This document shows, one piece after another, positions 38,338 through 39,420 of a stretch of 64,000 nucleotides of DNA (within the stretch, counting starts at the first letter, position 1; the number at the start of each line of letters is the position of its first letter). Source of the stretch: Escherichia phage vB_EcoM-ZQ3; the sequence record MW630116.1; one strand, written 5' to 3'. Position numbers and translations under genes: made by a program. Below the pieces are notes generated by a model. That model was not told where the DNA came from. It made no database searches and worked only from the letters and a program-made list of their open reading frames with translations.

Positions 38338-38528
38338 TGGACCAAGCCAAAATCGATAAGTTAATCCATACGCTTGTAGCAGATATCAATACACGGGCTC
38401 TTCGTAAATCGCAGAATGGCGATTCTTGGACTATGCAAGATTGCAAGAAAGGTGCTGAACTAGGACGTGAAATTGCTAAAATTCTTGGTGGACAATTTGA
38501 ATTTGCTGAAGAGGTAGTAAAACTGTGA
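38337..38528 (+). CDS. hypothetical protein (63 aa)
   Basis: ORF track; start overlaps previous stop. Confidence 0.45.
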
Positions 38529-39420
38529 AAAAGATTATTTTGACTGTAGGTTGTCCTGGGTCTGGTAAAAGCACTTGGGCTCGTGAATTTATTGCTAAGA
38601 ATCCTGGGTTCTTTAATATCAACCGCGACGATTATCGCCAATCCATCATGGGTCACGAAGAACGTGACGAGTACAAATATACTAAAAAGAAAGTATCGTA
38701 ACTTATATGCAACACGATGCGGCACATATGATTCTCTGTCAAGACGGAACTAAGGGTGTTATTATTTCCGACACCAACTTAAATCCTGAACGTCGTCTTG
38801 TCTGGGAAGAATACGCTAAGGAGTGGGGCCATGAAGTTGTATATCAAGTGTTCGATGTTCCATGGACCGAATTGGTTAAACGTAATGCTAAGCGTGGCAC
38901 AAAGGCTGTTCCTATTGATGTTCTACGTTCGATGTATTCTCGTATGCAAGAATACAAAGGACTTCCGGTTTATAAAGGAACTCCCGGTAAACCTAAAGCG
39001 GTTATCTTCGACCTTGACGGGACTTTAGCTCTACATGTTGCTCGTGGGCCTTATGAGTTAGATAAACTATCCACTGACGCCCCGAACCCTATGGTTGTCG
39101 AATATGTTAAGATGCTTCATCAGGCAGGGTATACAATTATTACTGTAAGCGGTCGTGAATCAGGCACTAAAGAAGATTCAATGTGTTATTACGAAGCAAC
39201 TAAAAAATGGATGGACACGTTTTCTATTCCATGGGAAATGCATATTCAACGTAATCAAGGTGACACTCGTAAGGACGATGTTGTTAAGGAAGAACTCTTT
39301 TGGAACTGTATTGCTCCTTATTATGATGTGAAATTGGCCATTGATGACCGTAACCAGGTTGTGGAAATGTGGCGACGTATTGGTTTAGAATGTTGGCAAG
39401 TCGCATTCGGTGATTTTTAA
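38525..39420 (+). pseudogene. pseT: polynucleotide kinase/3'-phosphatase gene interrupted by a frameshift in an A-run (58-aa P-loop fragment 38525..38701, remainder readable from 38686 to 39420)
   Basis: Frame 1 from GTG 38525: [22 protein letters not shown]...YKYTKKKVS then stop at 38699-38701; shifted frame reads KESIVTYMQ...[14 protein letters not shown]...DLDGTLA... to the end; the two frames together reproduce full-length T4 PNK (301 aa) as I recall it; junction is actaaaaagaaagtatcg. Confidence 0.75.

Follow-up and report, generated by a model that had tools for sequence, protein, structure and literature searches.

The 64-kb stretch of DNA analyzed here (the window; 64,000 nucleotides of Escherichia phage vB_EcoM-ZQ3, record MW630116.1) contains a polynucleotide kinase/phosphatase (PNK) gene, pseT, that is split between two reading frames. 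The locus raises the question of whether PNK has been lost from this phage, is expressed in spite of the frameshift, or has been wrongly recorded. A sequence-only reading had placed the frameshift in an A-run and had offered three explanations, namely, an inactivated PNK, a homopolymer sequencing error or expression that depends on slippage. We addressed the question through the identity of the two reading frames, the exact nature of the lesion, its occurrence among relatives and its predicted effect on the protein.

The pseT locus

The source phage is an RB69-type, T4-like coliphage of the genus Mosigvirus, with relatives that are 96-97% identical over 25 kb; at pseT, its closest relative is JS09 (99.6% identity). 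The 5′ part of the gene, ORF1 (38525..38701, plus strand), begins with GTG and encodes 58 aa (6.8 kDa) ending in ...YKYTKKKVS*, where residues 1-56 are native and are followed by V-S-stop. This premature zero-frame stop is read in the sequence as TAA at 38699..38701 on the plus strand. The GTG start overlaps the upstream stop codon (CTGTGA), and JS09 and FL18 have the same start. The 3′ part, ORF2 (38707..39420, plus strand; 237 aa, 27.5 kDa), is read in the -1 (= +2) frame with respect to ORF1 and corresponds to residues 63-299 of the ancestral PNK. In this frame, a TAA at 38683-85 is followed by an open stretch from 38686 to 39420, whose first ATG is at 38707, 5 nt 3′ of the ORF1 stop; a recognizable Shine-Dalgarno sequence is absent there.

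The two ORFs match different portions of the same protein family. ORF1 matches positions 2-50 of Pfam AAA_33 (E 2.5e-10), and ORF2 matches positions 68-141 of AAA_33 as well as HAD_PNKP over its full length (E 4e-57). When the PNK of Shigella phage phi25-307 is aligned to the locus, its aa 1-65 fall in one frame and its aa 56-299, with 98% identity, in another. After restoration of the frame, the protein aligns end to end with T4 Pnkp (1LTQ, E 5e-151) and keeps both the P-loop and the DxDxT motifs. The identification of the gene as a frameshifted pseT/Pnkp was thereby borne out by the ORF coordinates, the Pfam matches and the two-frame alignment of the phi25-307 PNK. The kinase motif, the phosphatase domain and the genomic position of a T4-type Pnkp gene were all found at the locus, and a single polypeptide of ~300 aa was not. 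As sequenced, pseT belongs to the T4 Pnkp family but is disrupted, and it ranks as a pseudogene or null allele.

The genes around the lesion are arranged in the order alc - pseT.3/.2/.1 - pseT - cd.4 - cd, with rnlA nearby, and are syntenic with those of JS09, HX01 and phi25-307. A TAATG overlap at 39418..39422 (plus strand) joins the pseT stop to the start of the cd.4-like gene (39420..39611), which is translationally coupled to the end of pseT. Further upstream, a near-consensus sigma-70-type promoter (TTTACA, 17-nt spacer, TATAAT; 11/12 matches) was noticed at 37981-38009, just upstream of an RB69ORF231c-like gene, and probably serves the ORF231c-ORF230c-pseT-cd.4 block as its early promoter. 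An antisense ORF at 38276..38725 (149 aa, minus strand) was judged spurious, as it overlaps three conserved plus-strand genes; the annotations of the relatives examined hold no minus-strand gene at this position.

The lesion is the loss of one AAAG unit

Alignments to relatives place the lesion in the AAAAAGAAAG tract at 38684..38693 (plus strand), which has the form AA(AAAG)2. The relatives carry AA(AAAG)3, coding for Lys-Lys-Lys-Glu-Ser, and read ACT AAA AAG AAA GAA AGT ATC, whereas the junction in the window reads ACT AAA AAG AAA GTA TCG TAA. Compared with the relatives, the window is short of a single AAAG unit (4 nt), and as a result, the sequence 3′ of the gap falls in the -1 frame. When the AAAG was put back, a 900-nt ORF with 100% DNA identity to JS09 pseT was obtained, and over 37837-39734 (1.9 kb), the window is identical to JS09 save for the 4-nt gap. 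Since the surroundings of the lesion show no further decay and are otherwise those of JS09, the deletion must have arisen very recently, if it is real at all.

The comparison with pseT of close relatives, which had been proposed as a check, showed a continuous ORF that is one AAAG unit longer in the relatives. It also changes the earlier description of the junction, which is not a plain A-run. The suggestion that a one-nucleotide change would restore a PNK of about 301 aa was right about the frame, as one extra A in the A5 run does restore it, but the resulting 298-aa protein, reading TKKES, matches no relative; the true difference is 4 nt, and the protein of the lineage has 299 aa. A one-base homopolymer error is ruled out as a description of the lesion by the alignments, in which a whole 4-nt AAAG unit is lost, and the window shows no general homopolymer noise, with six private indels relative to three relatives. 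The loss of a whole unit would set this lesion apart from the classic one-base homopolymer miscall, and a clean loss of exactly one unit would be the expected signature of slipped-strand mispairing.

Occurrence among relatives and in databases

A 106-nt query containing the junction was compared with 50,697 phage records and had matches in 633 of them. The best of the 633 had 96.4% identity, a shortfall fully accounted for by the 4-nt gap, and every one of 60 rows sampled evenly through the ranking (60/60) was 4 nt longer than the matched stretch of the query. Exact and degenerate patterns of the deleted junction were not found in IMG/VR, JGI metagenome contigs or GTDB genomes; as a positive control, the intact junction pattern was searched for as well and gave one match in IMG/VR and three in JGI metagenomes. 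Exact-protein look-ups of the ORF1 and ORF2 products in protein and contig collections returned no record. The two-frame arrangement is not conserved, as the relatives inspected have a continuous pseT ORF, and this ORF has 900 nt in the four relatives whose annotation was examined (JS09, pEK20, Shf125875 and mobillu). No copy-number variation of AAAG was seen among the relatives, all of which have three units. On the evidence of these collections, the deletion appears to be private to this sequence, and the frameshifted arrangement was found in no relative.

Homologue lengths give a consistent picture: 114 of the 120 PNK database proteins listed, which are representative homologues, have 294-311 aa. 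Judged from these lengths and from the 900-nt relatives, pseT looks to be under purifying selection in nature. A 258-aa "PNK" of phage FL18 was rejected as a truncated relative because its annotation had missed the GTG start and the DNA is intact. Matches of 1106 nt (for example, in mobillu) were likewise set aside, as they differ only in having TAA ATG rather than TAATG after the 900-nt CDS. Phosphatase-only or short PNK entries of 163, 170, 212 and 259 aa also occur in the database.

Predicted effects on the kinase and phosphatase

In T4 Pnkp, the kinase domain comprises aa 1-147 and the phosphatase domain, with known catalytic residues, comprises aa 148-301 (PMC3592404). The essential residues of the T4 kinase are K15, S16, D35, R38, D85 and R126, and the E57A substitution costs 150-fold in catalytic efficiency (PMC2831316). 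In the window, these residues are split between the two ORFs. ORF1 contains the P-loop GCPGSGKS (aa 9-16; 38549-38572, plus strand), in which the kinase motif GxxGxGKS is present, and the D35/R38 region (38627-38638, plus strand), so that K15, S16, D35 and R38 are all on its product; the equivalents of D85 and R126 lie in ORF2, and Glu57 is lost at the junction. Because the essential residues are divided and Glu57 is destroyed, no polypeptide would have a complete 5′-kinase site, and the 5′-kinase is predicted to be dead in this allele.

The phosphatase half is in a different condition. The HAD/DxDxT 3′-phosphatase domain is complete at 38992..39417 on the plus strand (Pfam PF25109, positions 1-143 of 143, E 4e-57), with the DLDGT motif at 39010-39024 (plus strand), and in the alignment to T4 Pnkp (1LTQ), it keeps the equivalents of S211, K258 and D277/D278. 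In PDB entry 5UJ0, a chain of 145 aa matches the restored protein over residues 157-299, which indicates that the phosphatase domain stands alone.

These features suggest a simple course of events. A replication slip (slipped-strand mispairing) would have dropped one AAAG unit and converted AA(AAAG)3 to AA(AAAG)2. Ribosomes that start at the GTG at 38525 would then make a 58-residue peptide and halt at the TAA at 38699-701. With an ATG 5 nt past this stop, the ORF2 phosphatase may be made at a low level by termination-reinitiation, giving a phosphatase-only product at best; as no Shine-Dalgarno sequence precedes the ATG, the 27.5-kDa product would depend on such reinitiation. An internal promoter for ORF2 was considered and rejected, since sigma-70-like matches occur at chance level (8 versus 5.8 +/- 2.6 expected). 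Some polarity on cd.4 is conceivable because this gene overlaps the pseT stop. The phage would fail to heal the 5′-OH ends of cleaved tRNA and to phosphorylate the 5′-OH mRNA ends left by RegB cleavage, and the allele would persist because pseT is dispensable on ordinary laboratory hosts.

Recoding, a gene in two pieces, or an artefact

We asked whether the frameshift could be bypassed during translation. A -1 rescue is possible within a 13-nt interval (38686-38698) between the -1-frame stop at 38683-85 and the zero-frame stop, and this interval holds the sole candidate slippery element, an A_AAG tetramer at 38686..38689 (plus strand). The register fits a -1 slip: the zero-frame AAG at 38687-89 could re-pair to AAA at 38686-88, with GAA as the next codon, and the product would be a 298-aa protein reading ...TKKESIV..., made by a constitutive leak or by one that is enhanced at limiting tRNA-Lys. 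In E. coli, no tetramer is more prone to shifting than A_AAG (PMC4066793), which has been seen to compensate for a nearby frameshift mutation (PMC5009743). Against this, the heptamer T_AAA_AAG is imperfect, with T_AA rather than A_AA at the P-site position, so that the P-site tRNA cannot re-pair. No Shine-Dalgarno-like (GGAG/AGGGAG-like) motif was found in the 20 nt upstream of the slip site, the downstream RNA folded no more favorably than its shuffled versions (z of -1.05 over 101 nt and of 0.05 over 48 nt), and no Rfam family was detected in 30000-40500. Transcriptional slippage would need a longer run than the A5 present here. Bare tetramers without a pseudoknot average 0.147% frameshifting in E. 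coli against a background of 0.112%, and a strong pseudoknot is needed for tetramers to reach 5.6% (PMC4066793). Moreover, a frameshifted arrangement that is confined to one sequence cannot have been shaped by selection for recoding. We therefore regard rescue by -1 ribosomal frameshifting as very improbable and any programmed frameshifting or recoding at pseT as highly unlikely; a trace leak of full-length PNK via A_AAG is possible and would not be a programmed mechanism. A conditional self-correction can also be imagined, in which depletion of tRNA-Lys by a host anticodon nuclease causes a hungry-codon -1 slip and PNK is made just when tRNA-Lys is cut, an idea to which we give hardly any credence. 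Its steps, in which a ribosome stalls at a hungry AAA codon in the A site while tRNA-Lys occupies the P site on AAG (38687-89) and then re-pairs perfectly with AAA (38686-88), are extremely improbable, and so, to the same extreme degree, is its outcome, in which the next codon, GAA (Glu, non-limiting), would lead to a 298-aa PNK with the Glu57-equivalent intact. The codon register does permit such a slip, but an arrangement private to one sequence cannot have been selected for it.

The retention of every phosphatase catalytic residue in ORF2, with a stop and a restart ATG 5 nt apart and a solved phosphatase-domain-only chain of T4 Pnkp (5UJ0), could also be taken to mean that pseT works as a gene in two pieces, whose products reconstitute the kinase non-covalently or whose ORF2 is kept as a dedicated 3′-phosphatase; nrdA, in the same window, is itself split by a homing-endonuclease gene. 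However, the break falls inside the kinase fold at Glu57, off any domain boundary, the ATG at 38707 has no Shine-Dalgarno sequence, and the arrangement occurs in no relative. With zero substitutions since the event, selection cannot have acted on it. We consider a functional two-piece gene to be very unlikely. The lesion is thus no recoding signal: either a dispensable gene has been knocked out, very recently and in an ordinary way, or the assembly is in error.

Between these two, we lean toward the former: the frameshift is probably a genuine, very recent slipped-strand null allele of pseT, a judgement that we make from sequence comparison and with modest confidence. It is possible, if somewhat doubtful, that the phage truly has AA(AAAG)3 and an intact 299-aa PNK and that one unit was dropped in base-calling, polishing or consensus, a possible route being the consensus of long reads over a short tandem repeat rich in purines. 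No public relative shares the deletion, exact-protein look-ups retrieved neither ORF product, and the identity of the flanking 1.9 kb and of the rest of the gene to JS09 would be expected from an artefact as well. As pseT is apparently under purifying selection, a true natural null is also less expected. A second unique one-base frameshift, in a short C-run, adds to this side: at ~8272, an extra C (GACC -> GACCC) cuts an RB69ORF270c-like 87-aa gene (8088-8349) to 63 aa, all 152 of the 152 matching phage records are 1 nt shorter in this region, and HX01 is otherwise identical. This second frameshift is compatible both with a stock that carries mutations and with an imperfectly called consensus. 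On the other side, a clean 4-nt unit loss is atypical of homopolymer-type errors. When 95 phi25-307 CDS/proteins were compared with the window, pseT and the 87-aa hypothetical gene were the only frameshifted genes among those that aligned at full length. The six private indels relative to the three relatives are spread over about 50-60 kb, and four of them are intergenic, at 33755, 43441, 43503 and 43812 (+2 TA, +1 G, -1 T and +1 A). The large essential genes are all intact, including the tail fibres, topoisomerase, ligase and baseplate genes. So few indels, together with intact large genes, are unlike an error-prone consensus. Of the three explanations offered at the outset, inactivation of PNK and an error in the sequence both stay in play. 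Dependence on slippage finds no support, given a state unique to this sequence, a bare A_AAG with no downstream structure and a tetramer rate of ~0.15% versus 0.11%.

Comparison with known systems

Read as a genuine null allele, the lesion is equivalent in kind to the laboratory pseT null mutants of T4, having arisen by a Streisinger-type repeat-unit deletion. The gene neighborhood, alc - pseT.3/.2/.1 - pseT - cd.4, is shared with T4. T4 pseT null or deletion mutants were constructed or selected, whereas here a 4-nt repeat unit was deleted spontaneously in a Mosigvirus of the RB69 type; moreover, the phosphatase domain is intact in a separate ORF, and the lineage appears to lack stp. Streisinger-type slipped-strand frameshift mutations were first described in T4. 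The pseT lesion resembles them in the loss of exactly one short tandem-repeat unit, although here the mechanism is deduced from the sequence only. Like T4 pnk mutants, a phage with this allele is predicted to be kinase-less and viable on ordinary hosts (PMC3014915).

Other systems resemble the locus less closely. The programmed -1 frameshifting of dnaX, IS3 and IS911 (A_AAA_AAG or A_AAG with stimulators) shares with it the A_AAG register and a downstream -1-frame ORF; however, pseT lacks a Shine-Dalgarno or structural stimulator, its T_AAA_AAG is imperfect and the arrangement is unconserved. Tetranucleotide contingency loci are alike in that the frame changes whenever a 4-nt unit is gained or lost. 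Bacterial contingency loci carry many repeat units, whereas pseT has gone from three units to two with no copy-number variation among relatives, and Tandem Repeats Finder reported no array at the pseT junction. A phase-variable contingency locus was therefore rejected on the grounds of the short tract and the lack of copy-number polymorphism among relatives. In the "savior indel" G-run mutants of the herpes simplex thymidine kinase, a short-repeat indel likewise disables a kinase and a slippery sequence at the site could in principle leak full-length product (PMC5009743); at pseT, in contrast, neither an advantage of PNK loss nor a leak is in evidence.

Other features of the window

The nrdA gene mentioned above consists of two ORFs, 30560..31984 (474 aa, NrdA aa 1-445) and 32730..33719 (329 aa, NrdA aa 449-751), separated by an HNH-like homing-endonuclease ORF at 32030..32740 (236 aa). 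This is a gene insertion and not a frameshift; nrdA is uninterrupted, with 751 aa, in JS09, HX01 and phi25-307, and no group I intron was detected at the split gene by Rfam. The split presumably resembles the "genes-in-pieces" nrdA of Aeromonas phage Aeh1. A gp37-like distal long-tail-fibre subunit gene at 15534-18671 is 57.7% identical to that of phi25-307, with neighboring genes at 95-100%, and is a mosaic host-range determinant. Compared with phi25-307, the window also has an insert of ~184 nt at 12700-12885, within or after the arn-region gene at 12485-12953, and lacks two homing-endonuclease genes, one between gp59 and gp33 (~26030) and one next to gp39.

Biological context

The loss of PNK had been considered meaningful because the enzyme repairs tRNA cleaved by the host PrrC anticodon nuclease. 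In T4, Stp activates PrrC, and Pnkp together with Rnl1 repairs tRNA-Lys (PMC3014915). The repair partner is intact in the window: rnlA (RNA ligase 1; 35447..36571, plus strand) is covered by tblastn over residues 1-374 at 99.2% identity with no stops. In T4, the PrrC activator stp encodes 26 aa and lies between ndd and ac. The corresponding ndd-ac spacer in the window (9327..9378, plus strand) has 52 nt, includes a hairpin followed by a T-run and contains no stp ORF, and no gene is annotated between ndd and ac in JS09 or HX01. A tblastn search of the 64-kb window with authentic T4 Stp found no homologue (best E 0.14, off-site), a result to be read with the proviso that a highly divergent 26-aa peptide located elsewhere in the genome could escape it. 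On these grounds, stp appears to be absent from this lineage, and the window holds an intact rnlA without a detectable stp rather than the full T4-type PrrC/Stp/Pnkp/Rnl1 circuit.

With stp missing, the PrrC rationale from T4 does not transfer directly to this lineage. The proposed significance of PNK loss is textbook knowledge for T4 and well founded there (PMC3014915), but its cost here is less clear. A lineage that lacks stp and yet keeps pseT intact in the relatives examined points to other selective pressures that maintain PNK. A RegB-linked role of PNK in mRNA decay has been described, and T4 pnk mutants grow normally on laboratory strains (PMC3014915). We suggest that the pressures on pseT come from other tRNA nucleases or from this RegB-linked role in mRNA decay.

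Should the deletion prove to be an artefact, a correction of the record is all that is called for, and in either case, no new mechanism is involved. If the deletion is real, this RB69-type phage is null for pnk, whether naturally or through its stock history, and provides a ready-made mutant. It should then be restricted on hosts with tRNA-cleaving anticodon nucleases, which matters for host-range work or therapy with this phage, and by analogy with T4, its RegB-cut early mRNAs should decay more slowly.
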